A stretch of 64,000 nt of DNA from an uncultured Deferribacteres bacterium (GCA_964014485.1 CAXHAT010000007.1:1764-65763), one strand, 5' to 3'; counted from the stretch's first letter, positions 5,190-16,107 are shown. Translations and numbers: made by a program. Notes: generated from the letters alone by a model not told the origin.

Positions 5190-6374
5190 TTAAAACGCCT
5201 TCTCCAGATCTTCCAGAATTTCTGCGGCCCGATTCCAGCCCAGCACCGTCGCCTGCACGTGTTTTTGCTTATCTTGCCCGCCGTACACCACAAAATTTTT
5301 TGATTGCAGCGAGTCGTGCGAAACGCTCCAGGCATTTAAACCTGCAAAATAATCTCGATTAAAAGTCTGCCCGGCCTTGAAATCGATAGCAAGAAATTCA
5401 TCTCCCGTCTCCAAAATCAAATCAACTTCATGGCCGGCACGATCTCGCCAAAAACTAAATCGAAACCTCCTTCCGCCACTCAAAGCCGTTTTCATCAAAT
5501 CGGCGATGATAAAGGATTCAAAGAACTCGCCTTTCAAACTATGAATGATCAGGTCGGACTTTTGTTTGACGCCAAGCAGCGAAGAAGCCAGACCTGCGTC
5601 ATAAAAATAGATTTTCGTCGTCATTGCGCTTTGGGCTCTTGCCGGACGCCTAAACATCGGAAGCTGAAAAACGATGAAGCTGTTTTCGAGGACTTGCAGC
5701 CATGATTTTGCGGTCTTGAACGTCACCCCGCAATCCTCCGCGAGCCTTGTGAGGTTAAGAACCCTGCCGATTCGCGCCGCGCACATTTTCATGAAGGTCA
5801 GAAAAAGATCAATGTCAGCGATGTTTCTGATGAAGCGCACGCGCCGTTCAACATAAGCGTTGACATGTTCCGGAAAAAACTCTGCGGGCGGGAGATTGTA
5901 TGCATAAAGCTCGGGATAAAAGCCCTGAAAAAGCAACGTCTCGAAATCGTGAAAAGCCGAGCCTGATCGATGCAATTCTTCGATAGAAAGCGGCAATAAA
6001 TTGAGCGTTCGCGCTTTTTGCCCGAGCAGTGCGACAAAGTCGGCCAGCGAAGCAAATTGATGAGAATTAATGATCAGAAAACGGGCGGGCGTCTCGCTGC
6101 TTTCAATGTGTTTTTTGAGCCGAGGCAAAAGAGACGGGGCGCGGTGAATTTCGTCGAGGATAATTTGGTGCGGGAAGGCGGCAAGAAAGCCCTTGGGATC
6201 GTCGCGGGCAAACGTCCGCATCTCTTCATCCTCGAACGAAACGTATCGCCAGTGTTCGAGGGCGTGTTGGGCCAGAGCCGTTTTACCCGCTTGGCGAGGG
6301 CCGAGCAAGATAACGACTGTTGCGCTTTGAACGGCCTCCAGCAGTTTTTGCGTGATCGCCCGTTCGATAAACAT
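5190..6374 (-). CDS. AAA+ ATPase of the AAA_14/DUF4143 (COG1373-like) type
   Basis: Walker A LLGPRQAGKTAL and Walker B-like IILDEIH. The length (394 aa) and C-terminal region resemble DUF4143 proteins. Confidence 0.75.
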   Translation of the reverse strand: MFIERAITQKLLEAVQSATVVILLGPRQAGKTALAQHALEHWRYVSFEDEEMRTFARDDPKGFLAAFPHQIILDEIHRAPSLLPRLKKHIESSETPARFLIINSHQFASLADFVALLGQKARTLNLLPLSIEELHRSGSAFHDFETLLFQGFYPELYAYNLPPAEFFPEHVNAYVERRVRFIRNIADIDLFLTFMKMCAARIGRVLNLTRLAEDCGVTFKTAKSWLQVLENSFIVFQLPMFRRPARAQSAMTTKIYFYDAGLASSLLGVKQKSDLIIHSLKGEFFESFIIADLMKTALSGGRRFRFSFWRDRAGHEVDLILETGDEFLAIDFKAGQTFNRDYFAGLNAWSVSHDSLQSKNFVVYGGQDKQKHVQATVLGWNRAAEILEDLEKAF

Positions 6375-6379
6375 GGCGT

Positions 6380-6814
6380 TTAGCTCTCGCTGTTTTTGTC
6401 ATACGGAACAATTTTGTCCCATTCTTCAGCGCTGGAGCGTGCGACAAAAGCCACAACTTCGTCTGTGTCGCTTATGTTGTAAACCTCGTGCGGCACGCCC
6501 GCTTTAATGAAGATAAAATCTCCGGCTTCATTGATCAACTGCTGCTTCAATCCAGGGCCAAAATCGTGGCGAACCTTGCCCTTCATAATATAAAGCATCA
6601 ATTCGAAGCCGACGTGGATGTGTGCGTAGGCAACGCCGCCCGGCGGAATCGTGGCAATGTTGACCGATAATGCGTTGGAACCAACGTTTTTCGCGGACAT
6701 GCCTTCTTTGTAATGAATGCCGTTCCAACCGCGCTTTTCGCCGCCGCCGCGAATGGTCAAAATGCCGTCATGGTCTTCAACATGAGAAGTTTGAATGGCG
6801 CCGTTTGGTTCCAT
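6380..6814 (-). CDS. Cupin-domain protein
   Basis: 144 aa with a cupin-like metal motif region (GGVAYAHIHVGFE ... GVPHEVYN). Confidence 0.65.
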   Translation of the reverse strand: MEPNGAIQTSHVEDHDGILTIRGGGEKRGWNGIHYKEGMSAKNVGSNALSVNIATIPPGGVAYAHIHVGFELMLYIMKGKVRHDFGPGLKQQLINEAGDFIFIKAGVPHEVYNISDTDEVVAFVARSSAEEWDKIVPYDKNSES

Positions 6815-6842
6815 TGCGAATGTCTCCGATAATAGTTTGCGA

Positions 6843-7472
6843 TTATCCGTTAGGCTGAGGGCTGTGTTGATTCAACGCGGGTTTCAGCTCCGCAACAGCC
6901 GCTTCAAAACACTTGTGTAAGCTCGCATTTACAGCCGCGACCACGCTTTCCGGCTGCTTCAATTCGACCTTGGTCAATTGTTCAAACGCGCCCTTCCAAA
7001 TAACCGCTTCCTGACCCGGTTCCTTCAAGGTTAATTGCACAGCCGCTTTTCCAAACCATTCACCGTTGATGTCAACCTCTTCAAAAGCCAGCAGCCTTCC
7101 GGAGATGACATAGCTCACACGATCAGCGGAAGGAAATGTGACCACGTCGGCAAAAGTCTTTCGTTTAATCAAGAAATCGCGCAAAGCGTCCGTCGCCAAT
7201 GCGTTCGGCGCTGCGACCCAGCGGTGATAATGCCAATATTTGATCTCAAATTCGTTTTCACGAAAAATGATACGGTCATCCGTATAAAGAACGCCTCCGT
7301 CCAATTTCTGCAGACCAATGACAAAAGGCGATTCCGTGTACGCCGAGCCGTTGGTCGTTTGCGTTTCAGGCGTGCTCAAAGTGTAAAAACTCAACTGTCT
7401 TACTCCGCCGCATGAAATAAGCAGAAAGCTAAACGTGATGATCGAAAATTTAAGAAATGTTGCTTTCTTCAA
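6843..7472 (-). CDS. ABC-transport auxiliary lipoprotein (DUF330/PqiC-YmbA-like), last gene of the Mla/MCE cluster
   Basis: Lipoprotein signal MKKATFLKFSIITFSFLLISCGG. About 200 aa, immediately downstream of the MCE gene, as for PqiC/YmbA-type components. Confidence 0.6.
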   Translation of the reverse strand: MKKATFLKFSIITFSFLLISCGGVRQLSFYTLSTPETQTTNGSAYTESPFVIGLQKLDGGVLYTDDRIIFRENEFEIKYWHYHRWVAAPNALATDALRDFLIKRKTFADVVTFPSADRVSYVISGRLLAFEEVDINGEWFGKAAVQLTLKEPGQEAVIWKGAFEQLTKVELKQPESVVAAVNASLHKCFEAAVAELKPALNQHSPQPNG

Positions 7473-7503
7473 AAAACGTGCTCCTCAATCGGAAAACATC
7501 AAT

Positions 7504-8424
7504 CTATTTTTTGGAAACCTTCCTCACCGGCGGTTGCGACCGACGCACGAGGCTCCAGGGTTGCTCTTTAATTTGTTTGCTGAAAACTTCAAAGTTTGCG
7601 CTTGCGTCCTGCACGTTTTCCAGCACTTCTTTTAGCACAACTTCATTGGTATACATCAAATAGTTGAGCTTGTCGGACACTTTCGCAAATTCGACCATCA
7701 AGCTGTCGGCGCTGTGAATCATCGAGGATGAACGCGTCAAAGTCTCGCTCAACGTTTCAGCGTTTCCTTCCATAATCCGATCAACGCGCTCAACCGTCGT
7801 CGTCATTTTTGAACTCAAACCAGCAATGTTTTCCGCGATTTCTTTAGCTGAATTGCGATTTTCTTGCAGCACCGTGTCGATTCCGGCGACAATATTTGAA
7901 AAATGCATCGTGTTTTTTTCATCGAGCATCACATTTAGCCGAACGAGCAAAGATTCCATCTGCGCCATCGTCGTTTGGAACGGCTCGGCCATCGCCACGC
8001 CAAGCTGGTTGAGCGAAGGCACGTCACGCGATAGGAGCACGCCGCCGTCCGCGAGCATGGCCGCTTCCGCCGATCCCGGCGTAATTTCAATATAAAAATC
8101 GCCCATCATGCCGAGGCTGGTGATGTGCGCTTCCGAGTCGGTTTTGATAGGCGCATTCTTTTTGACGCTCATTGCAACGTCAATTCTGCCGTCGCCGCCT
8201 GGGTTGAATGCCACACGCTCAACTTCGCCGACCAATACACCGCCCAAACGCACCAGGGAACCTGGCCGAATGCCGTTGGAATGGCCGAATTGCGCCTGGA
8301 TTTTTTTGCGCTCCGGCTGCAAGGTGACGCCGGTGATTGAAAAAACAAAGGTCAAAAAGATCACGATGCCGAGCAAAATAAGCAGTCCGGCTTTGATTTC
8401 GTGTGAACGATTAGAAGTGCTCAT
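7504..8424 (-). CDS. mlaD: MCE/MlaD-family substrate-binding protein with extended helical C-terminus
   Basis: N-terminal TM anchor IKAGLLILLGIVIFLTFVF, then an MlaD-domain core (GSLVRLGGVLVGEVERV). Located downstream of mlaF. Confidence 0.8.
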   Translation of the reverse strand: MSTSNRSHEIKAGLLILLGIVIFLTFVFSITGVTLQPERKKIQAQFGHSNGIRPGSLVRLGGVLVGEVERVAFNPGGDGRIDVAMSVKKNAPIKTDSEAHITSLGMMGDFYIEITPGSAEAAMLADGGVLLSRDVPSLNQLGVAMAEPFQTTMAQMESLLVRLNVMLDEKNTMHFSNIVAGIDTVLQENRNSAKEIAENIAGLSSKMTTTVERVDRIMEGNAETLSETLTRSSSMIHSADSLMVEFAKVSDKLNYLMYTNEVVLKEVLENVQDASANFEVFSKQIKEQPWSLVRRSQPPVRKVSKK

Positions 8425-8442
8425 GTTACAAGTTTAAATTCG

Positions 8443-8528
8443 ATGGGTTTTTGGAATCATGGATTGTTGGATTACTGGGTTTTTGATTTCCATCAATCCA
8501 ATAATCCAGCACTCCACTATTCCAGCTA
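8443..8528. repeat. Family D palindromic repeat (TGGAAT...GGATTGTTGG / CCAATAATCC...ATTCCA), copy 1
   Basis: Similar by eye to 13105-13210 and 48463-48560. Fills the mlaF-mlaD intergenic gap. Confidence 0.6.
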
Positions 8529-8529
8529 C

Positions 8530-9315
8530 TTATACTCTGACCAATGTATTAAGATAGGCTTCACGATCAATGGCTTCGTCTTCCGGCTCACGATTGAGAA
8601 ATTTTTCCACAACTGGATTTTCGCTCGCTTGCAATTCTTCCAACGTTCCGTCCGCGATGATTTGGCCTTCGTGCAGCATTGCGACGCGGTCTGCAATCAG
8701 GAAAACTGAAGCCAGTTCGTGCGTTACCACAATGATCGTCATTTTGAACGCGCTTTTCAAGCGAAGAATGAGGTCGTCGATGCCACGCGCGACCACAGGA
8801 TCGAGCCCCGCCGACGGTTCGTCGCAGACCAGAATGTCTGGATCCATCGCGATGGCGCGAGCGAGTCCGGCGCGTTTTTTCATGCCGCCGGAAAGCTCGG
8901 CGGGCTTAAAACTCTCGAAGCCTCGCAAGCCAACGACTTCCAATTTCATCCGCGTCATAATCTTGATCGTCGACGGCTCTAACTCCGTGTGTTCGCGCAA
9001 CGGCAGAGAGACGTTCTCGCCAACGGTCATGGAGTTGAACAGCGCCGAGCTTTGAAACAACACGCCCATCTTGCGCTGAATTTTGCCCATCTCGTTTTCA
9101 TGCAAACCGGTGATGTCATTGCCTTTGATTTCAATCGAACCGGCGGAGGGTCTCGCGAGGCCGATCAAGTGGCGCATAAGCGTGCTTTTACCGCAGCCTG
9201 AGCGCCCCAGAATCACCAGCGTCTCGCCGGGCATAATATCAAGATTTACGCCCTTGAGAATATGACGCTCGCCATAGTACGTGTGCAAATCACGAATTTG
9301 GATGATGGGGTTCAT
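8530..9315 (-). CDS. mlaF: ABC transporter ATP-binding protein, MlaF type
   Basis: Walker A GRSGCGKST, signature LSGGMKKRAGLARA, Walker B ILVCDEPSAGLD. Start moved to the internal ATG at 9315 (MNPIIQIRDL), the usual N-terminus for this family. Confidence 0.9.
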   Translation of the reverse strand: MNPIIQIRDLHTYYGERHILKGVNLDIMPGETLVILGRSGCGKSTLMRHLIGLARPSAGSIEIKGNDITGLHENEMGKIQRKMGVLFQSSALFNSMTVGENVSLPLREHTELEPSTIKIMTRMKLEVVGLRGFESFKPAELSGGMKKRAGLARAIAMDPDILVCDEPSAGLDPVVARGIDDLILRLKSAFKMTIIVVTHELASVFLIADRVAMLHEGQIIADGTLEELQASENPVVEKFLNREPEDEAIDREAYLNTLVRV

Positions 9316-9574
9316 TGACCCGGGCTCCCAACCATTTTTCAAATGATTTTTTACTTTCACCGCTCCGCCGTCCTGCCGGCAGGCCTTCAACGCCGATAAA
9401 CTCATCCAAATCCGGCCACTCAATGGCGTAGGCGTCTCCAAGCAGTTGCCAGTTCTCTCGTTCTTTTTTTGAAGCGTTTTTCAAGCGCGGGTACCACTCC
9501 AGAAGGACGGATACATTGCGGCCATCCGCCAAATTTACGATCAGATGAGAAGAAATCACTCGAACTTGATTCAT
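9290..9574 (-). CDS. DUF2442-like small protein
   Basis: 94 aa. WYPRL...ERENWQLLGDAYAIEWPDLDEFIGVEGL matches my memory of the DUF2442 consensus (W.PRL ... HWP.LDEDIS.EGLL). The 3' end overlaps the mlaF start by 26 bp. Confidence 0.55.
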   Translation of the reverse strand: MNQVRVISSHLIVNLADGRNVSVLLEWYPRLKNASKKERENWQLLGDAYAIEWPDLDEFIGVEGLPAGRRSGESKKSFEKWLGARVNEPHHPNS

Positions 9575-9599
9575 TTTGAGTTTTCTTGCAAATGAAAAT

Positions 9600-9925
9600 T
9601 TTAACGCAAAGCTCGCGAAGGCGCGGAGTCGTCGCAGAGTTTTTGTGGCAGCTTTGCGTTCTCAGCGCGTATTTGAAAAGTCCCAGCGGGACGAATGAAA
9701 ATAGCCCGGCGATTGATCGCCGGGGGAAGCGACCGGGTTTTCCCTTCGTTAAAGTCCCGTAGGGACGACCGAGATCGGGTCTGTGGCTGTAATCTCAACC
9801 GTCCCTGCGGGGCTTCCAGGCGAGAAACGTGGTCTTTCGCCACAACGATAAATCGTTGGGCTATTTTCAAGCGTCCTTGCAGGACTTTCCAAACAAACAC
9901 ATTCTCGGCGCACTCCGCGTTATAG
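9600..9925. repeat. About 325-bp nested palindromic element between the DUF2442 gene and mlaE
   Basis: Paired arms: AACGCAAAGC/GCTTTGCGTT, AAAGTCCCAGCGGGACG/CGTCCTTGCAGGACTTT, ATAGCCCGGCGATTGATCG/CGATAAATCGTTGGGCTAT, AAGTCCCGTAGGGACG/CGTCCCTGCGGGGCTT. Confidence 0.7.
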
Positions 9926-9939
9926 AAGCAAAATTGGAT

Positions 9940-10743
9940 TTAAAGAAAGAACAAAAAAAACGCCGTAAAAATCACGTCCGCGAAGATGATCAGGAAAATT
10001 GAGATGACCACAGAACGCGTGGTGGAGCGGCCAACTCCGGCGGCGCCGCCGTCAACGATAAAACCCTGGTAACAGCCGACGCCGACGATGATGAGCGCGA
10101 AAAACATCGTTTTGATCAAACCGGTCGTGACATCGCTAATCACCAGCGCATTCGCCACTTGTGAAATAAAACGAACGCTGGTCACGTCCAGCGCGCCGGT
10201 GGTGAAAACGTATGCCCCGGTTATGCCGACAATATCCGCGATGAGCGTGAGCGCCGGGAGCATGATCATCATGGCGATAAAACGCGGCACGACCAAAAAA
10301 CTTATCGGGTTTAATCCCATGGTTTGCAGCGCATCCAATTCTTCGGCGACTTTCATTGTGCCAAGCTCCGCCGCGATGGCTGAACCGCTGCGCCCGGCAA
10401 TGACGATGGCTGTGATAATCGGGCCAAGCGAGCGCGTTTGGGCGACGGAAACGAGGTTGGCCACAAACACCTCGGCGCCAAACGGCTTTAGTTGATGCGC
10501 CGCTTGCATCGCCAGAATCAACCCGACAAAAAAGGCGATCACGCTGACGATCGGGATGGATTGCCAGCCAATTAAAACGCCTTGCTCGGCAACCATGTGC
10601 CAGCGAATTTTTGCGCCGCGAAACGGCGCCACGAATGTCCATTTGAGCGTGTCGAGTGCGAGCTTGCTGATGCGGGCGAGGTAGATGAGAAAATCAATAG
10701 CAGGGCGTCCGAACGCAGCGACCAGCCGGAGTACCGCGTCCAT
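9940..10743 (-). CDS. mlaE: ABC transporter permease, MlaE type
   Basis: 267 aa and polytopic. MlaE-like core (SIPIVSVIAFFVGLILAMQ ... GAAGVGRSTTRSVV). Confidence 0.9.
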   Translation of the reverse strand: MDAVLRLVAAFGRPAIDFLIYLARISKLALDTLKWTFVAPFRGAKIRWHMVAEQGVLIGWQSIPIVSVIAFFVGLILAMQAAHQLKPFGAEVFVANLVSVAQTRSLGPIITAIVIAGRSGSAIAAELGTMKVAEELDALQTMGLNPISFLVVPRFIAMMIMLPALTLIADIVGITGAYVFTTGALDVTSVRFISQVANALVISDVTTGLIKTMFFALIIVGVGCYQGFIVDGGAAGVGRSTTRSVVISIFLIIFADVIFTAFFLFFL

Positions 10744-11082
10744 CTATTTTAGGCTCTCCATGGCCTGTTCCTGGTCGGGGTAAATATCGAAAACTTTGTC
10801 CAGACGACTCAGTTCAAAAACTTCTTTGACCGCTGAAACGAGGCCGAAAATTTTGAGCGAGCCTTTATACTTGCCCGTCTGCTGCAGGCCTTCAACAAGC
10901 GTGGCGACTCCCGAGCTGTCCATGTACGGGCAGTTCGTGAGGTCGATAAAAATGTTTTTCACTTTCTTGTCCGTTAAGGCAAGAAGCGCATCGCGGACGC
11001 GCGGCGACGAGTAGAGATCGACGTCTCCGGTAATCGCCAACATGGTTGCATTATCCAGCTCGTGCGTTGAAACCTGAATCAT
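10744..11082 (-). CDS. STAS-domain protein (anti-sigma-factor antagonist / MlaB-like)
   Basis: 112 aa. The SpoIIAA/RsbV-type motif YMDSSGVATLVEGL has a conserved phosphorylatable serine. The stop TAG (10744-10746) directly abuts the mlaE ATG (10741-10743). Confidence 0.85.
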   Translation of the reverse strand: MIQVSTHELDNATMLAITGDVDLYSSPRVRDALLALTDKKVKNIFIDLTNCPYMDSSGVATLVEGLQQTGKYKGSLKIFGLVSAVKEVFELSRLDKVFDIYPDQEQAMESLK

Positions 11083-11540
11083 GAGCGCTCCTTGTCTTTC
11101 TTGTATTTTCTTAATTTCAAATTATTGCCTTCATCCCCGGCGTCTTCGTAAATCACTTCGTCCATGATGCTTTCGATTAAATGCACTCCCAAGCCGCCTG
11201 GTCGGACGTCGTCCAGGTCTCGCGACTGAATCTCTCCTTTTTTCACCTTCTTGCCGAAGTCATTGAGCACAATTTCAATGCCGTTGGTCAGCATTCGGCA
11301 GGTGACGGTAATCGGGCCGTCGTAGCGATTTTCGTAGGCGTGTTTGATGATGTTTGCGCAGGCTTCGTCGACGGCGAGTTTGATGCTGTTTTGCTCGTTC
11401 TGGTCAAAACCGACCATCTCGGCGATGTATGCGGTCGTCAGACGGACGACTTTAAGAATTTTTGGGTCGCTGGGCAGACGGAATTCAATCACGTTTTTTA
11501 GCTTATGATCAAGAATACTCATTTGTGGTTGATCAGACAT
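11079..11540 (-). CDS. RsbW/SpoIIAB-like anti-sigma regulatory serine kinase (HATPase_c_2)
   Basis: 153 aa. N-box-like DEACANIIKHAY and G-box region GGLGVHLIESIMDEV. Its stop overlaps the STAS start as ATGA. Confidence 0.8.
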   Translation of the reverse strand: MSDQPQMSILDHKLKNVIEFRLPSDPKILKVVRLTTAYIAEMVGFDQNEQNSIKLAVDEACANIIKHAYENRYDGPITVTCRMLTNGIEIVLNDFGKKVKKGEIQSRDLDDVRPGGLGVHLIESIMDEVIYEDAGDEGNNLKLRKYKKDKERS

Positions 11541-11630
11541 TTTTCCGCCTAATAATTGAGTTTTACTTGGAGCCTGTTAGAAAATTGGGAGTCAGACGCT
11601 TCAGCATTTGATAGTAAACAGCTTTGTTGG

Positions 11631-11749
11631 CGGCTGTCCAAAAACATAATATTTTTATTGCGTTCCACAACATGTCGTAGGGGTTCAAGATTTTGAACCC
11701 CTACATATGGTATGTCTCTCATTCGGAAACCATGTTTTGGGATAGCCCC
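11631..11749. repeat. Family A palindromic repeat, copy 2
   Basis: GGCTGTCCAAAAACAT ... GTAGGGGTTCAAGATTTTGAACCCCTAC ... CATGTTTTGGGATAGCC. Lies between the rsbU-like and rsbW-like genes. Confidence 0.8.
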
Positions 11750-11788
11750 ACTCCAAAACATCTATTCGCCAAGGTTTTCGGACAGCTC

Positions 11789-13096
11789 TTAATTGCTTGC
11801 AGGAATTCCGTTCCATTCCAGCGCGACAACCGTCAAGTCGTCGTGTTGCGGGGTCTTGCCGGCAAACGCTTCAATTTCAGAAATCGTTTTTTTGACTGCG
11901 TCTTCAGGCGATTTCCACCCTTTCTTGAGCTGGCGCAACAAGCGAGAAAGAGAATATCTTTCGCCAGCATCATTCTTGGCTTCAATCAGGCCGTCCGTGA
12001 AGCAGACGAGCTTGTCTTTGGGCTGCAATTGCAATCTGTGCGTTTGGAACTCCGCGTTTGCCAGAATGCCAAGCGGTACACCAACTTTTTTGTCGATAGC
12101 CCGGCTCTGAAACGTCTCGCCGTTGATGTGCAAAACGGGCACGTGCCCTGCATTCAAAATAGTAACTTCGCCGGTATTCGCATCCAAAACCAGGTAGAGC
12201 AGCGTGACGAACATGCCGCGTCGACCGCGCTCAACGAGCAAATTGTTTACGGCAAAAAACGTATTTTCCGGCGCTTCTTCAATTTGCGTGTGAAAACGGA
12301 AATCGCTGATCAAGCGCGCCATGTAAAGCGCCGCCGGAATGCCTTTGCCCGAGACGTCGCCAATCACTATCCCGAGCTTATCCGCGCCAAATTCGATGAA
12401 ATCATACAAGTCGCCGCCGACGGATGAGGCGGGCATACTGCGCGCTGAAATTTGAAAACGATTGTTCGGACAACTCGGTGCATTCTGCGGTATAAAACTT
12501 TCCTGAATGATACGCGCCGCTTCCAATTCCTGCCGAAACTTCTGCTGGTCGAGCAGCGACTGGTGGATGCGTGCATTGTCAATCGCGAGGGCGACCTGGC
12601 GGCAAAAAGTTGAGAACAATTCCAGATCGTACTCGTCGAAAGGCCTTCCATCAATACGATTGATGACCTCCGCCACGCCGATAAGCTTATTTCTGACCTT
12701 GAGCGGAACCGCCAGAATTGAGCGGGTGACAAAGCCAGTGGCATTGTCCACTTTTTGGGCAAATCTCTTGTCCGCGCTGACGTCTGGAACGTTGAGCGAT
12801 TCACCCGTTTCCGCCACCCATCCTGCAATGCCCTCGCCCATTTTTAGCCGCAGCGTCTGCTTGGTGACGTCCCCGGCGTCGCCGAGGGCCACTTCACATT
12901 CGAGAAAGCCGGTGCGCTCATTGAACTGCAAAACGCTGCTTGCTTCGGCGTTCATGACCGCTTGCGCTTTTTCCATCACCAGATTGATGACTTGTTCGAG
13001 GTCAAGCGTCGAATTTACGAGCATGCTGACCTCGATGAGGCTGGATAGGCGTTTTACGCGGCGCTTAAGTTGGGCAACTTCCTGTTTTTCTGTCAT
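11789..13096 (-). CDS. GAF-domain PP2C (SpoIIE/RsbU-type) serine phosphatase
   Basis: The N-terminal half is GAF-like (ASSVLQFNERTGFLECEVALGD...). The C-terminal half is PP2C with GGDLYDF, VIGDVSGKG, TDGLIEA and QHDDLTVVAL. Confidence 0.85.
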   Translation of the reverse strand: MTEKQEVAQLKRRVKRLSSLIEVSMLVNSTLDLEQVINLVMEKAQAVMNAEASSVLQFNERTGFLECEVALGDAGDVTKQTLRLKMGEGIAGWVAETGESLNVPDVSADKRFAQKVDNATGFVTRSILAVPLKVRNKLIGVAEVINRIDGRPFDEYDLELFSTFCRQVALAIDNARIHQSLLDQQKFRQELEAARIIQESFIPQNAPSCPNNRFQISARSMPASSVGGDLYDFIEFGADKLGIVIGDVSGKGIPAALYMARLISDFRFHTQIEEAPENTFFAVNNLLVERGRRGMFVTLLYLVLDANTGEVTILNAGHVPVLHINGETFQSRAIDKKVGVPLGILANAEFQTHRLQLQPKDKLVCFTDGLIEAKNDAGERYSLSRLLRQLKKGWKSPEDAVKKTISEIEAFAGKTPQHDDLTVVALEWNGIPASN

Positions 13097-13104
13097 TGCA
13101 AAAG

Positions 13105-13210
13105 TCGGAGTGGTGGAACAATGGATTCTTGGAATGCCGGATTAGCGGGTGATTTACTCTTTTATGCCGCCGCTGTATTTCTCCATCAATCCATTATTCT
13201 AATCCTCGAT
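13105..13210. repeat. Family D palindromic repeat, copy 2
   Basis: GGAGTGGTGGAACAATGGATTCTTGGAATGCCGGATTAGC ... CCATCAATCCATTATTCTAATCC, upstream of the PP2C gene. Confidence 0.55.
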
Positions 13211-13266
13211 CTCTCGAAATCATCATCGTTACGCGGTAAAAACATCTAGAGCGGGACGTCGGGCGC

Positions 13267-15984
13267 CTAATGCGCTTCAAGCCAGTGATCGCCGACGCCA
13301 ATGTCGACCTTTACCGGTACATTCAATTTTACTGCGTTTTCCATCTCTTCGGCTACGATGCGCTTGGCTTTTTCGAGCTCAGATTCAGGCGTTTCGAACA
13401 CCAGTTCGTCATGGACTTGCAAAAGCATTTTTGTCTGCATTTTTTCTTTTTCCAAACGCTTTTGCACATTGATCATCGCGACCTTGATCATGTCTGCCGC
13501 AGTGCCTTGAATCGGCGAATTTGTGGCGATGCGTTCCGCAAATTCGCGGTTACGAAAGTTCTTGCTCGTCAAGTCAGGCAGGTAACGTTTTCTACCCATC
13601 AAGGTAGTCACATAACCGTCCGCTCGCGCATTCGCGATGGTGTCGATGATGAATTGATTGACGTTTGGAAAGCGCACAAAATACGCTGCGATAATGCTTT
13701 GGGCCTCGTCACGGGAAATGTTCAAACGCGAAGCAAGACCATAGGCGCTGATGCCGTAAATGATGCCAAAATTGATTTCTTTGGCTTTGCGCCGGTGATC
13801 TGAGGTGAGCTCATTTTTCGGCACGCCAAAAACTTCGGACGCTGTGGCGCTGTGTATGTCGCGACCTTCGTTGAACGCTGCGGCCATGCCGGGATCGTTG
13901 GAAAGATGCGCCATAACGCGCAGCTCGATTTGCGAATAATCCGCCGCCAGAAATTTCCAGCCCGGCTCGCCCGGGACGAATGCACGCCGAATCTGCCGCC
14001 CCATTTCGGTGCGAATCGGGATGTTTTGCAGATTTGGATCGCTGGAGGACAGGCGGCCAGTCGCGGCGATTGTTTGATTGTAGGAGGTGTGGATGCGTTT
14101 TGTGCGCGGGTTCACCATCTTCGGCAGGGAATCGACATAGGTGCTTTTCAATTTGGTGATTTCACGATATTCGACCAATTTTTCCGGCAACGGATGCTTC
14201 TTGGCCAATTTTTCCAGCACGCTGGCGTCGGTGCTGTAGCCGGTTTTCGTTTTCTTGACCACCGGCAATTTTAAGTCTTCAAACAGAATCTTGCCAAGCT
14301 GCTTGGTGGAGTTGATGTTGAACTCGCCGCCCGCCAAGGCATAAATTTCTTTCTCCAAAATACCCAAGGACACAGCCATGTCGTGCGACATTTTTTCGAG
14401 GTAAGGCAAATCCAGCGCAATGCCGTTGTATTCCATCTGAACCAGCACGTCAACCAGCGGGATTTCAATCGTTTCGGCAAGTTTCGTGAGGCCGGCTGCT
14501 TTGATTTTCGGCTCAAAAACGCGTCGTAATCGCTCGGTCACGTCTGCGTCTTCACAAGCATATTCCGCGACCGTTTCTTCCGGCACTTCGCGCATCGTGA
14601 TTTGTTTTTTGCCCTTGCCGATCAAGTCGGAAGTGGGGATTTTTGTAAGATTAAAATGCTCCAGTGCCAGCGCATCAAGATTGTATTTTTTACCGGCACC
14701 GGGATTTAGCAAGTAGGAAGCGAGCATTGTGTCGAACTTGAGGCCTTGCACGATGACGTCATAATTCTTTAGCACAAGAATGTCATATTTTGCATTCTGG
14801 CCATTTTTCGAGATGCTCGCGTCTGTCAGCAATGGTCCGAGTCTGGCGATCAAATCGATCTCTTCCTCGCCGTCCAGAACCATGACTGAATATGGAGCAA
14901 CGCCTTCCGGCGGCGTTTTTACCGGCACATAAAAAGCTTCGCCTTCCGCTACGGAAAATGAGAAACCGACAATCTCGGCCATCATCGGATACTGCGAGGT
15001 CGTCTCCAAATCGAAAGTGAAATGCCCGGTTTCTTCTAACTTTTGTACCAGGTTATCGAGTTGCCGCCTCGTTTTGATTGTCTGGTAGTCGCGTTTTTCC
15101 TGAGGCTGCTCAACTTCGCCTTGAAAACGCGCAATGAGAGAATTGAACTCAAGATCACGCAATTGTTCGATCAGTTTTTCCGCGTCAGGCGATTTTCGCG
15201 ATAATTGTTCCAAATCCAGCTCTACCGGCGCGTTCAATTCAAGCGTCACCAGGTCTTGCGATAACTTGGCTTGATCGACGTTTTCCCGCAGGCTGGTTTG
15301 CACCGCCTTGCCTTTGACCTCGTCAACGTTTTCGAGAACGCCTTCAAGGCTGCCAAACTCTTCGAGCAGCTTAACCGCCGTTTTTGCCCCAACTCTTGGC
15401 ACGCCCGGAACGTTGTCCGACGTATCGCCGACCAAAGCGAGATAATCGACGATTTGTTCAGGAGGCACGCCCATTTTTTGCTTCACGCCCTTCGGATCGA
15501 AAATTTCGACATCGGCGCCGGAACGCTTTAGGTTATAAAGCAGAATGTCTGGCGTGACCACCTGCATCATGTCTTTGTCCGCCGTCGCGATATAAGTTTT
15601 TATCCCCTGCTTTTCCGCCTTTATCGCCAACGTTGCAAGTACGTCGTCAGCTTCAAAACCGGGCGCTTCAATAAGCGGGATGTTCATAGCCTTGATGACG
15701 TTTTTTAGCTTGGGAATTTGATCCCGCATGTCCTCGGGCATTTTTTCACGCGTGGCTTTGTAGGCGGCGTAAGCTTTGTGGCGGAAGGTTGGCTCGCGCG
15801 TATCGAAAACGACGGCCATATAAGCCGGATCGTCTTCGTCTTCAATTTTGAAGACGGCGCGGAGAAAGCCAAAAACGGCGCTGGTGTTTTCCCCCCGAGA
15901 ATTTATCAAAGGATTGCTGATAAACGCAAAAAAGGATCGGTACGCAAGCGCCGATCCATCGATCAAGAACAACTTTTTTTCCAT
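13267..15984 (-). CDS. polA: DNA polymerase I
   Basis: 5'-nuclease N-terminus (LFLIDGSALAYRSFFA), 3'-5' exonuclease motif FDLETTS, and polymerase motifs DYSQIELRVMAH and LQVHDELVFE. Start set at ATG 15984, preceded by AAAGAGG. Confidence 0.95.
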   Translation of the reverse strand: MEKKLFLIDGSALAYRSFFAFISNPLINSRGENTSAVFGFLRAVFKIEDEDDPAYMAVVFDTREPTFRHKAYAAYKATREKMPEDMRDQIPKLKNVIKAMNIPLIEAPGFEADDVLATLAIKAEKQGIKTYIATADKDMMQVVTPDILLYNLKRSGADVEIFDPKGVKQKMGVPPEQIVDYLALVGDTSDNVPGVPRVGAKTAVKLLEEFGSLEGVLENVDEVKGKAVQTSLRENVDQAKLSQDLVTLELNAPVELDLEQLSRKSPDAEKLIEQLRDLEFNSLIARFQGEVEQPQEKRDYQTIKTRRQLDNLVQKLEETGHFTFDLETTSQYPMMAEIVGFSFSVAEGEAFYVPVKTPPEGVAPYSVMVLDGEEEIDLIARLGPLLTDASISKNGQNAKYDILVLKNYDVIVQGLKFDTMLASYLLNPGAGKKYNLDALALEHFNLTKIPTSDLIGKGKKQITMREVPEETVAEYACEDADVTERLRRVFEPKIKAAGLTKLAETIEIPLVDVLVQMEYNGIALDLPYLEKMSHDMAVSLGILEKEIYALAGGEFNINSTKQLGKILFEDLKLPVVKKTKTGYSTDASVLEKLAKKHPLPEKLVEYREITKLKSTYVDSLPKMVNPRTKRIHTSYNQTIAATGRLSSSDPNLQNIPIRTEMGRQIRRAFVPGEPGWKFLAADYSQIELRVMAHLSNDPGMAAAFNEGRDIHSATASEVFGVPKNELTSDHRRKAKEINFGIIYGISAYGLASRLNISRDEAQSIIAAYFVRFPNVNQFIIDTIANARADGYVTTLMGRKRYLPDLTSKNFRNREFAERIATNSPIQGTAADMIKVAMINVQKRLEKEKMQTKMLLQVHDELVFETPESELEKAKRIVAEEMENAVKLNVPVKVDIGVGDHWLEAH

Positions 15985-16107
15985 TTCCGCCTCTTTAATT
16001 CCTCTTGCGAAAAAAGTAACTGAAGGGGCGGTGAATGTCAACGGATTTTGTCGTTGGGCTTTTTGCTCCGGTCAGATTACCGGCAATCTAAAGATACGGC
16101 GAGTATT

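Follow-up and report, generated by a model that had tools for sequence, protein, structure and literature searches.

Gene content of the operon

An operon combining partner-switching genes with the genes of a lipid transporter was analysed in a 64,000-nt stretch of DNA, hereafter the window, from an uncultured Deferribacteres bacterium (GCA_964014485.1 CAXHAT010000007.1:1764-65763). The region examined, 6843-13096, holds seven co-directional open reading frames (ORFs) on the minus strand, which encode a GAF-PP2C phosphatase, an RsbW-like kinase, a STAS protein, MlaE, MlaF, an MCE protein and a PqiC-like lipoprotein (Table 1). These genes, their order and their coordinates had been proposed in an initial annotation made from the sequence alone, and all ORFs were recovered where it had placed them. 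Its domain assignments (GAF, PP2C, RsbW-like, STAS, MlaE, MlaF, MCE and DUF330-type) were borne out by Pfam and NCBIfam profile searches. The two tight junctions it had described could also be read: the kinase stop and the STAS start overlap as ATGA, and the mlaE ATG directly abuts the STAS stop TAG. The operon is bordered by polA upstream and a cupin gene downstream, and no second STAS, kinase, PP2C or Mla set was found within the 64-kb window.

The STAS protein belongs to the anti-sigma-antagonist superfamily TIGR00377, with a score of 77 bits against a cut-off of 53.45. Its SpoIIAA/RsbV-type serine motif, YMDSSG, to which the initial annotation had drawn attention, is invariant across 25 aligned homologues. 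A search against PDB sequences gave TM1442, RsbV and SpoIIAA as the nearest solved relatives. The AlphaFold (AF2) model obtained from 25 homologues, with a predicted local distance difference test (pLDDT) score of 91.6, has the full SpoIIAA topology including β5 at residues 99-101 and α4 at 104-109, and Foldseek searches with this model returned RsbV, SpoIIAA and TM1442 at the top. The kinase scores 101.5 bits against NCBIfam RsbW, under the equivalog cut-off of 145, and its best PDB match is Bacillus subtilis RsbW (6m36_A, 1.3e-17), with which the N-box EACANIIKHAY and the G2 box GGLGVHL align. In the phosphatase, the metal-binding Asp motifs of PP2C (GGD, GDVSGKG, FTDG and HDD) are kept in 60 orthologues. 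Several features of an anti-sigma antagonist are found together, i.e., a score above the family cut-off, the DSSG serine, and a cognate kinase and PP2C with intact catalytic motifs. Judged by sequence and by the predicted fold, the protein is a complete kinase substrate of the SpoIIAA/RsbV type that stands outside the MlaB family.

The GAF domain is closest to the cyclic-nucleotide-binding GAF domains of PDE5/PDE2/PDE6/PDE10 and CyaB2 (E 1.7e-29 to 1e-24), its best PDB matches being cGMP- and cAMP-binding GAF domains. An NKFDE-like pattern (N146, R147, F153 and D157, within phosphatase residues ~140-160) is partly conserved in the 60 orthologues. These similarities hint at a cyclic-nucleotide input to the module.

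A MlaE permease, an ABC ATPase and an MCE-domain protein in one cluster make up an Mla/MCE ATP-binding cassette (ABC) transporter. The best NCBIfam match of the ATPase, whose best start is the ATG at 9315, is MlaF (NF008809) with 211.7 bits; because this lies below the equivalog cut-off of 441, the protein is regarded as a MlaF-like ATPase and not as an E. coli-type equivalog. It aligns over its full length with Acinetobacter baumannii MlaF (7d06_B). In its C-terminal tail, Y254, L258 and V259 align with Y261, L265 and L266 of E. coli MlaF, which fill the MlaB-MlaF groove (PMC7367683). Of 71 orthologues, 62 have Y or F at the first position of this Y254-x3-L258-V259 motif, and 67 have L or I at the second. 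The MCE protein scores 85 bits with TIGR04430 and 84 bits with TIGR00996, both below cut-off, and a lipobox, LLISC, was read in the sequence of the PF03886 lipoprotein. A query with E. coli MlaC found no match among the window ORFs (MlaA was not searched for), and the six-component E. coli type was not recovered. The transporter is a MlaFE system with a long MCE protein and a PqiC-like lipoprotein.

Conservation of the arrangement in relatives

A one-genome-per-species scan with two STAS-family motifs yielded at least 593 related stretches, of which the best 80 were analysed. The ORFs of these loci were searched with the window proteins, and intergenic gaps were computed after start-codon refinement. 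STAS is followed by MlaE in 78 of the 80 loci, and the two remaining contigs end 303-389 bp past STAS, so that the adjacency holds in all 78 informative loci. A kinase domain lies upstream of STAS in every one of the 80 (in one of them, L085, it is fused to the phosphatase), and a PP2C gene is adjacent in 69. MlaF was found in 72 loci, the MCE protein in at least 67 and the PF03886 lipoprotein, in the same position, in at least 56. The junctions are tight as well: the kinase and STAS genes are at most 10 bp apart in 71 of 78 loci, and STAS and mlaE in 50 of 74, 20 of those 50 being overlaps of 4 or 1 bp.

The STAS homologues with 55-76% identity come from metagenome-assembled genomes (MAGs) named KSB1 or Calditrichaeota, and their contigs carry the identical seven-gene order among other neighbours. 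In a second shell of relatives and in other metagenomic contigs, the arrangement is kept in wholly different surroundings. By their record labels, the carriers are KSB1, Calditrichota, Nitrospinota, Gemmatimonadales, Glassbacteria, Tectomicrobia, Methylomirabilota/NC10, Thermoanaerobaculia, Deferribacteres and Thermodesulfobacteriota; these roughly ten phylum-level groups are labels, some of them automatic and possibly wrong. All carriers found are uncultured lineages or MAGs; they include Caldithrix MAGs and complete MAG chromosomes such as OY843751.1 and OZ245330.1. A protein search from the most divergent member (L085) gave proteins of uncultured lineages only, with no model organism among the matches listed. 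Loss of the synteny in relatives, which the initial annotation had named as the observation that would speak against a functional link, was not seen. The kinase-STAS-mlaE arrangement is therefore not a chance adjacency, as it is present in every related locus examined.

The distance matrices of all six proteins compared correlate with each other (r = 0.70-0.92), from which it follows that the operon diverged as a unit. In two loci of one KSB1 lineage (L001 and L002), the trio remains joined to mlaE while mlaF and the MCE gene are not adjacent. The flanks vary between loci (polA, MgtE, Ser/Thr kinases and others). Among the commonest flanking clusters are hybrid and GAF histidine kinases, an SLT transglycosylase, SurA and Lon, together with a Ser/Thr kinase accompanied by FHA and PP2C_2 partners.

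Some of these neighbours recur in particular groups. L069, L073, L006 and ~14-18 other KSB1/Calditrichota-type loci have a conserved divergent cluster upstream on the opposite strand. Its genes encode a PEGA-domain Ser/Thr protein kinase, an FHA/FG-GAP protein and a phosphatase of the PP2C_2 family. On the downstream side, an SLT transglycosylase recurs in 21 loci and hybrid histidine kinases in 29. The polA gene, which occupies 13267-16041 on the minus strand of the window, lies directly upstream of the operon there and in 18 of the 80 loci. In six loci, polA and the kinase gene abut, as there is no PP2C gene in between. A 932-aa ORF ending in the kinase domain was found in a Thermoanaerobaculia-labelled MAG (L067, 6063-8861); its first ~800 residues have no Pfam match and no PP2C is adjacent. 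Possible explanations are an over-extended ORF call and a new sensor region.

Table 1. Features of the operon in the window and of fused variants in related loci
Feature	Position	Strand	Length	Evidence and remarks
GAF-PP2C (SpoIIE/RsbU-type) serine phosphatase	11789..13096	minus	435 aa	Pfam SpoIIE 164.5 bits, 3.5e-48; GAF 78.3 bits, 1e-21
RsbW/SpoIIAB-type serine kinase	11079..11540	minus	153 aa	HATPase_c_2 89.2 bits, Pfam 2.8e-25
Single-domain STAS protein	10744..11082	minus	112 aa	Pfam STAS 69.4 bits; Ser56 in YMDSSG
MlaE-family permease	9940..10743	minus	267 aa	Pfam MlaE 256.4 bits, 2.5e-76; TIGR00056 234 bits (cut-off 212)
MlaF-type ABC ATPase	8530..9315	minus	261 aa	ABC_tran 116.6 bits; C-terminal extension present
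Single-MCE-domain protein (long MlaD type)	7504..8424	minus	306 aa	Pfam MlaD (PF02470) 63.1 bits (cut-off 25), 3e-17, residues 40-117
ABC_trans_aux (PF03886, former DUF330; PqiC/YmbA-like) lipoprotein	6843..7472	minus	209 aa	Pfam 29.3 bits (cut-off 26)
Perfect 13-bp hairpin in the phosphatase-kinase spacer (248 bp)	11677..11704	minus		No U-tract after the hairpin
Lineage-specific insertion: DUF2442 ORF and structured element	9290..9939	minus		Pfam, Rfam
DUF2442 ORF	9290-9574	minus	94 aa	Pfam E 5.8e-17; end overlaps the mlaF start by 26 nt
Acido-Lenti-1 motifs (Rfam RF01687), inverted pair	9679-9724; 9841-9886	minus; plus		48.1 and 35.7 bits; gathering score 37
GAF-PP2C-kinase fusions in related loci	L085 6965-8764; L093 5210-6991; L095 5206-7020			Thermodesulfobacteriota-labelled lineage and relatives

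A proposed phospho-switch on the transporter and its alternatives

On balance, we favour, with modest confidence, the view that phosphorylation of the STAS subunit gates the MlaFE-MCE lipid ABC transporter in this conserved operon, where we infer both the STAS-MlaF contact and the sign of the effect. By close homology, the RsbW-like kinase phosphorylates Ser56 of STAS and the GAF-PP2C protein removes the phosphate from it. A small ligand bound to the GAF domain presumably sets the phosphatase activity, and a cyclic nucleotide is possible by similarity. STAS would be the output element and play the part that MlaB has in E. coli. In one phosphorylation state, most likely the phosphate-free one, its helical face would dock on the helical subdomain of MlaF, and the C-terminal tail of the adjacent MlaF subunit would clamp it there. 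The docked STAS would stabilise or activate the MlaF2E2-MCE complex. A phosphate at the centre of the helical face would release STAS and lower transport. With STAS as the output, the main task of the kinase would be to set the STAS phospho-state and not to sequester a sigma factor.

That STAS is the output element is suggested, first of all, by its invariant adjacency and translational coupling to mlaE. The order kinase-STAS-target places STAS, and not the kinase, beside the target, which is the reverse of the gene orders rsbV-rsbW-sigB and spoIIAA-spoIIAB-sigF. Furthermore, three loci encode the GAF-PP2C phosphatase and the kinase as a single fused protein of 593-604 aa immediately before STAS-mlaE (Table 1); such a fusion would suit an enzyme pair setting the state of STAS better than a free kinase sequestering a sigma factor. 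The persistence of the STAS-mlaE link in the two KSB1 loci where mlaF and the MCE gene have moved off also counts for gating of the transporter by STAS. An action similar to that of MlaB is suggested by the alignment of E. coli MlaB to the family profile, in which Ser56 falls on Thr52 of MlaB, and by the conservation of the clamp motif in MlaF. In E. coli MlaB, Thr52 occupies the middle of the interface with MlaF, and the T52E substitution weakens MlaF binding (PMC7367683). The simplest prediction from this is that phosphorylation releases STAS and lowers transporter assembly or ATPase activity.

Several observations weigh against the gating of the transporter by STAS. MlaB has a minimal STAS fold of four strands and three helices, without the fifth strand and the last helix (PMC7367683), and both elements that MlaB lacks, β5 and α4, are present in the STAS model. 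The protein reaches only 20.8 bits with the MlaB model NF033618, against a cut-off of 90. Among the Foldseek matches, E. coli MlaB (chain 6xbd_K) ranks 40th with a template modelling score (TM-score) of 0.45, and in the PDB sequence search A. baumannii MlaB appeared at E 0.8-0.95 and E. coli MlaB was not found. Filing the protein as an MlaB was rejected because it resembles MlaB neither by the sequence model nor in fold. It does share its operon with mlaF, mlaE and the MCE gene, as expected of an MlaB, both in the window and in all 78 informative related loci. The MlaF tail is not specific evidence for a STAS partner, since such a tail is reported in Veillonella as well, which is without MlaB (PMC10665443). 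An adjacent PP2C is missing in 10 loci, all of which have enough upstream sequence. After removal of the shared signal, the partial distance correlations (STAS-MlaF 0.15, STAS-RsbW 0.28, STAS-MlaE -0.09) do not single out the STAS-MlaF pairing and are too weak to choose partners. Finally, mlaE is parted from mlaF in the window by a 624-bp insertion with a terminator-like hairpin, because of which co-transcription of mlaF with the STAS gene is not assured in the source organism.

The enzymes and STAS may also be connected in another manner. In a true partner switch, the RsbW-like protein itself would bind and inhibit MlaF or MlaE, and unphosphorylated STAS would lift this inhibition by capturing the kinase, without ever touching the transporter. 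This is the canonical logic of RsbW and SpoIIAB, and both the presence of the kinase in every locus and the structure of STAS, that of a standard kinase substrate, fit it. Nevertheless, STAS and not the kinase adjoins mlaE in all loci, the kinase is tied to the phosphatase in the fused lineages, and the MlaF tail retains the MlaB-clamping motif. The partial correlations of RsbW with MlaE (0.02), MlaF (0.10) and the MCE protein (-0.11), although a weak test, point the same way. We therefore regard a direct inhibition of the transporter by the kinase as unlikely.

The absence of a sigma factor at the operon, remarked upon in the initial annotation, was pursued by jackhmmer and phmmer searches with E. 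coli FliA and RpoD. The 6,841 ORFs searched, from the window and from 88 loci, gave no RpoD/FliA-type (group 1-3) sigma factor; with the same settings FliA finds RpoD at E 1e-13. These searches cover sigma factors in cis, and extracytoplasmic function (ECF) sigma factors might escape FliA/RpoD queries. The adjacent sigma factor that would mark the kinase partner of an anti-sigma antagonist is thus seen neither in the window nor in the 88 loci. When the flanking ORFs were clustered and annotated, no sigma factor appeared among the conserved neighbour families, and no conserved candidate target gene emerged from the flanking clusters.

These results bear on a second alternative, in which the transporter is the input: docking of STAS on MlaF would report the transporter state or lipid stress, and the freed kinase or STAS would act on an unlinked target. 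The operon would then be an envelope-stress sensor whose target might be, e.g., a sigma factor, an anti-sigma factor or an enzyme. The conserved linkage fits either direction of signalling, and sensing via transporters is known in other systems. On the other hand, the module already has a dedicated cytoplasmic sensor in its GAF domain, and neither a conserved candidate target nor a sigma factor in cis came to light in the searches just described, which make this direction of signalling improbable too. Least probable of all is that two independent modules share one transcript, a cassette with a remote target merely happening to lie upstream of mlaEFD: although no sequence feature specific to transporter binding was demonstrated in STAS or the kinase and STAS scores as an ordinary anti-sigma antagonist, the adjacency holds in all 78 informative loci, which bear some ten phylum-level labels and differ in their flanks, and comes with overlapping stop/start codons. 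It also survives where mlaF and the MCE gene have moved off, and is accompanied by co-divergence of regulators and transporter.

The insertion between mlaE and mlaF, which the initial annotation had passed over, makes the gap 624 bp long in the window (9316-9939), against a median of 7 bp in the relatives. It contains a DUF2442 ORF and a pair of Acido-Lenti-1 motifs, the latter situated in a 220-nt imperfect inverted repeat of GTCCC-N4-GGGAC hairpins that looks like a small inserted element. One of the Acido-Lenti-1 copies reads as a terminator-like hairpin, and a repeat search found no other copy of the structured element in the window. A 99-aa ORF at 9601-9900 was rejected as a gene, as it has no Pfam match and overlaps the RNA motifs. 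Insertions at the mlaE-mlaF junction also occur in L013, L018, L019 and L024. A second structure lies in the spacer between phosphatase and kinase genes, where the fold of 11660-11720 has -24.7 kcal/mol and a z of -5.5 relative to shuffles; this hairpin could mark a place where the transcript is processed or attenuated, so that the phosphatase is expressed apart from the remaining genes. A scan of 6300-13400 for promoters and terminators leaves the transcription units undefined: promoter-like sites numbered 8 where 5.7 were expected, and terminator-like sites fell short of expectation.

Comparison with known systems

Post-translational control of lipid traffic to the outer membrane is largely unknown in bacteria. 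The operon offers a natural system that pairs a STAS subunit with a dedicated kinase, a phosphatase and a domain for ligand sensing, and in which the hypothesis can be tested with purified proteins. A search of the open full-text literature found no paper that joins Mla/MCE systems with an RsbW-type kinase, a PP2C or partner switching. A review on STAS-only proteins is silent on Mla, ABC transporters and lipids, and a Leptospira transcriptome paper naming both Mce and STAS proteins proved irrelevant. The initial annotation had spoken of a regulatory logic undescribed for Mla-type systems, and in the literature searched no description of it was found; partner switching with non-sigma outputs is, however, already known. 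Bordetella BtrU/V/W and Pseudomonas HsbR-HsbA are partner-switching-like systems of this kind. Since such modules are known, the operon joins two known kinds and does not found a new category.

The closest counterpart of the transporter half is E. coli MlaFEDB (6XBD, 6XGY; PMC7367683). Both operons of a MlaF/MlaE/MCE transporter include a gene for a single-domain STAS protein, a Ser or Thr stands at the start of α2 (Ser56 corresponding to Thr52), and MlaF has a tail with an aligned Tyr/Leu motif. The present STAS protein, on the other hand, is of the full SpoIIAA type with β5 and α4 and fails the MlaB model, and its gene lies upstream of mlaE while mlaB is found at the operon end. It has its own kinase and phosphatase, which are reported for no Mla system in the literature found. 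Within the window no homologue of MlaC was found (no search was made for MlaA), and the MCE protein is of the long type and is followed by a PqiC-like lipoprotein. Kolich et al. (2020) reported no experimental evidence of MlaB phosphorylation, raised phosphorylation of Thr52 as a possibility with no kinase known, and left the regulation of active MlaB as an open question (PMC7367683). We suggest, quite tentatively, that gating via STAS by a dedicated kinase and phosphatase might be old and widespread in non-proteobacterial diderms, and that MlaB might be a trimmed descendant which kept Thr52 and the MlaF clamp and lost the kinase. If so, the MlaB-MlaF contact would be left over from phosphoregulation, or would be an instance of it that is still hidden.

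The regulatory half resembles the RsbU-RsbV-RsbW-σB and SpoIIE-SpoIIAA-SpoIIAB-σF modules of Bacillus in its PP2C with an N-terminal sensor, its HATPase_c_2 kinase and its DSSG STAS protein, and RsbV, RsbW and SpoIIAA are the best sequence and structure matches of the present proteins. It differs from them by having no linked sigma gene, by the reversed order of kinase and STAS, and by the permease gene that comes next. In SypE-SypA of Vibrio fischeri (PMC10120452) and in HenR-STAS of Anabaena, described in 2026 as controlling a glycosyltransferase (PMC13555669), the phospho-state of STAS, set by an RsbW-like kinase and a PP2C, likewise controls a non-sigma output, and SypE unites kinase and phosphatase in one protein as do the three fused variants. 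In contrast to these non-sigma-output systems, the presumed target here is the ABC lipid transporter of the same operon, and the sensor is a GAF and not a receiver domain. An ABC transporter would, if the gating proves true, join the short list of non-sigma outputs of partner switching.

Outside the Proteobacteria, the MlaEFD system of Veillonella parvula (PMC10665443) shares with the present one the MlaE-MlaF-MCE core, the long MCE protein and the lack of a MlaC homologue (here within the window, MlaA not having been searched for). In a survey of 1,083 genomes, Grasekamp et al. (2023) found MlaA, MlaB and MlaC to be sparse and mostly proteobacterial, and a kinase was never mentioned (PMC10665443). 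If gating by STAS holds, the published view of MlaB-like components as essentially proteobacterial would need revising. Unlike in V. parvula, STAS, kinase and phosphatase are here a conserved and integral part of the operon.

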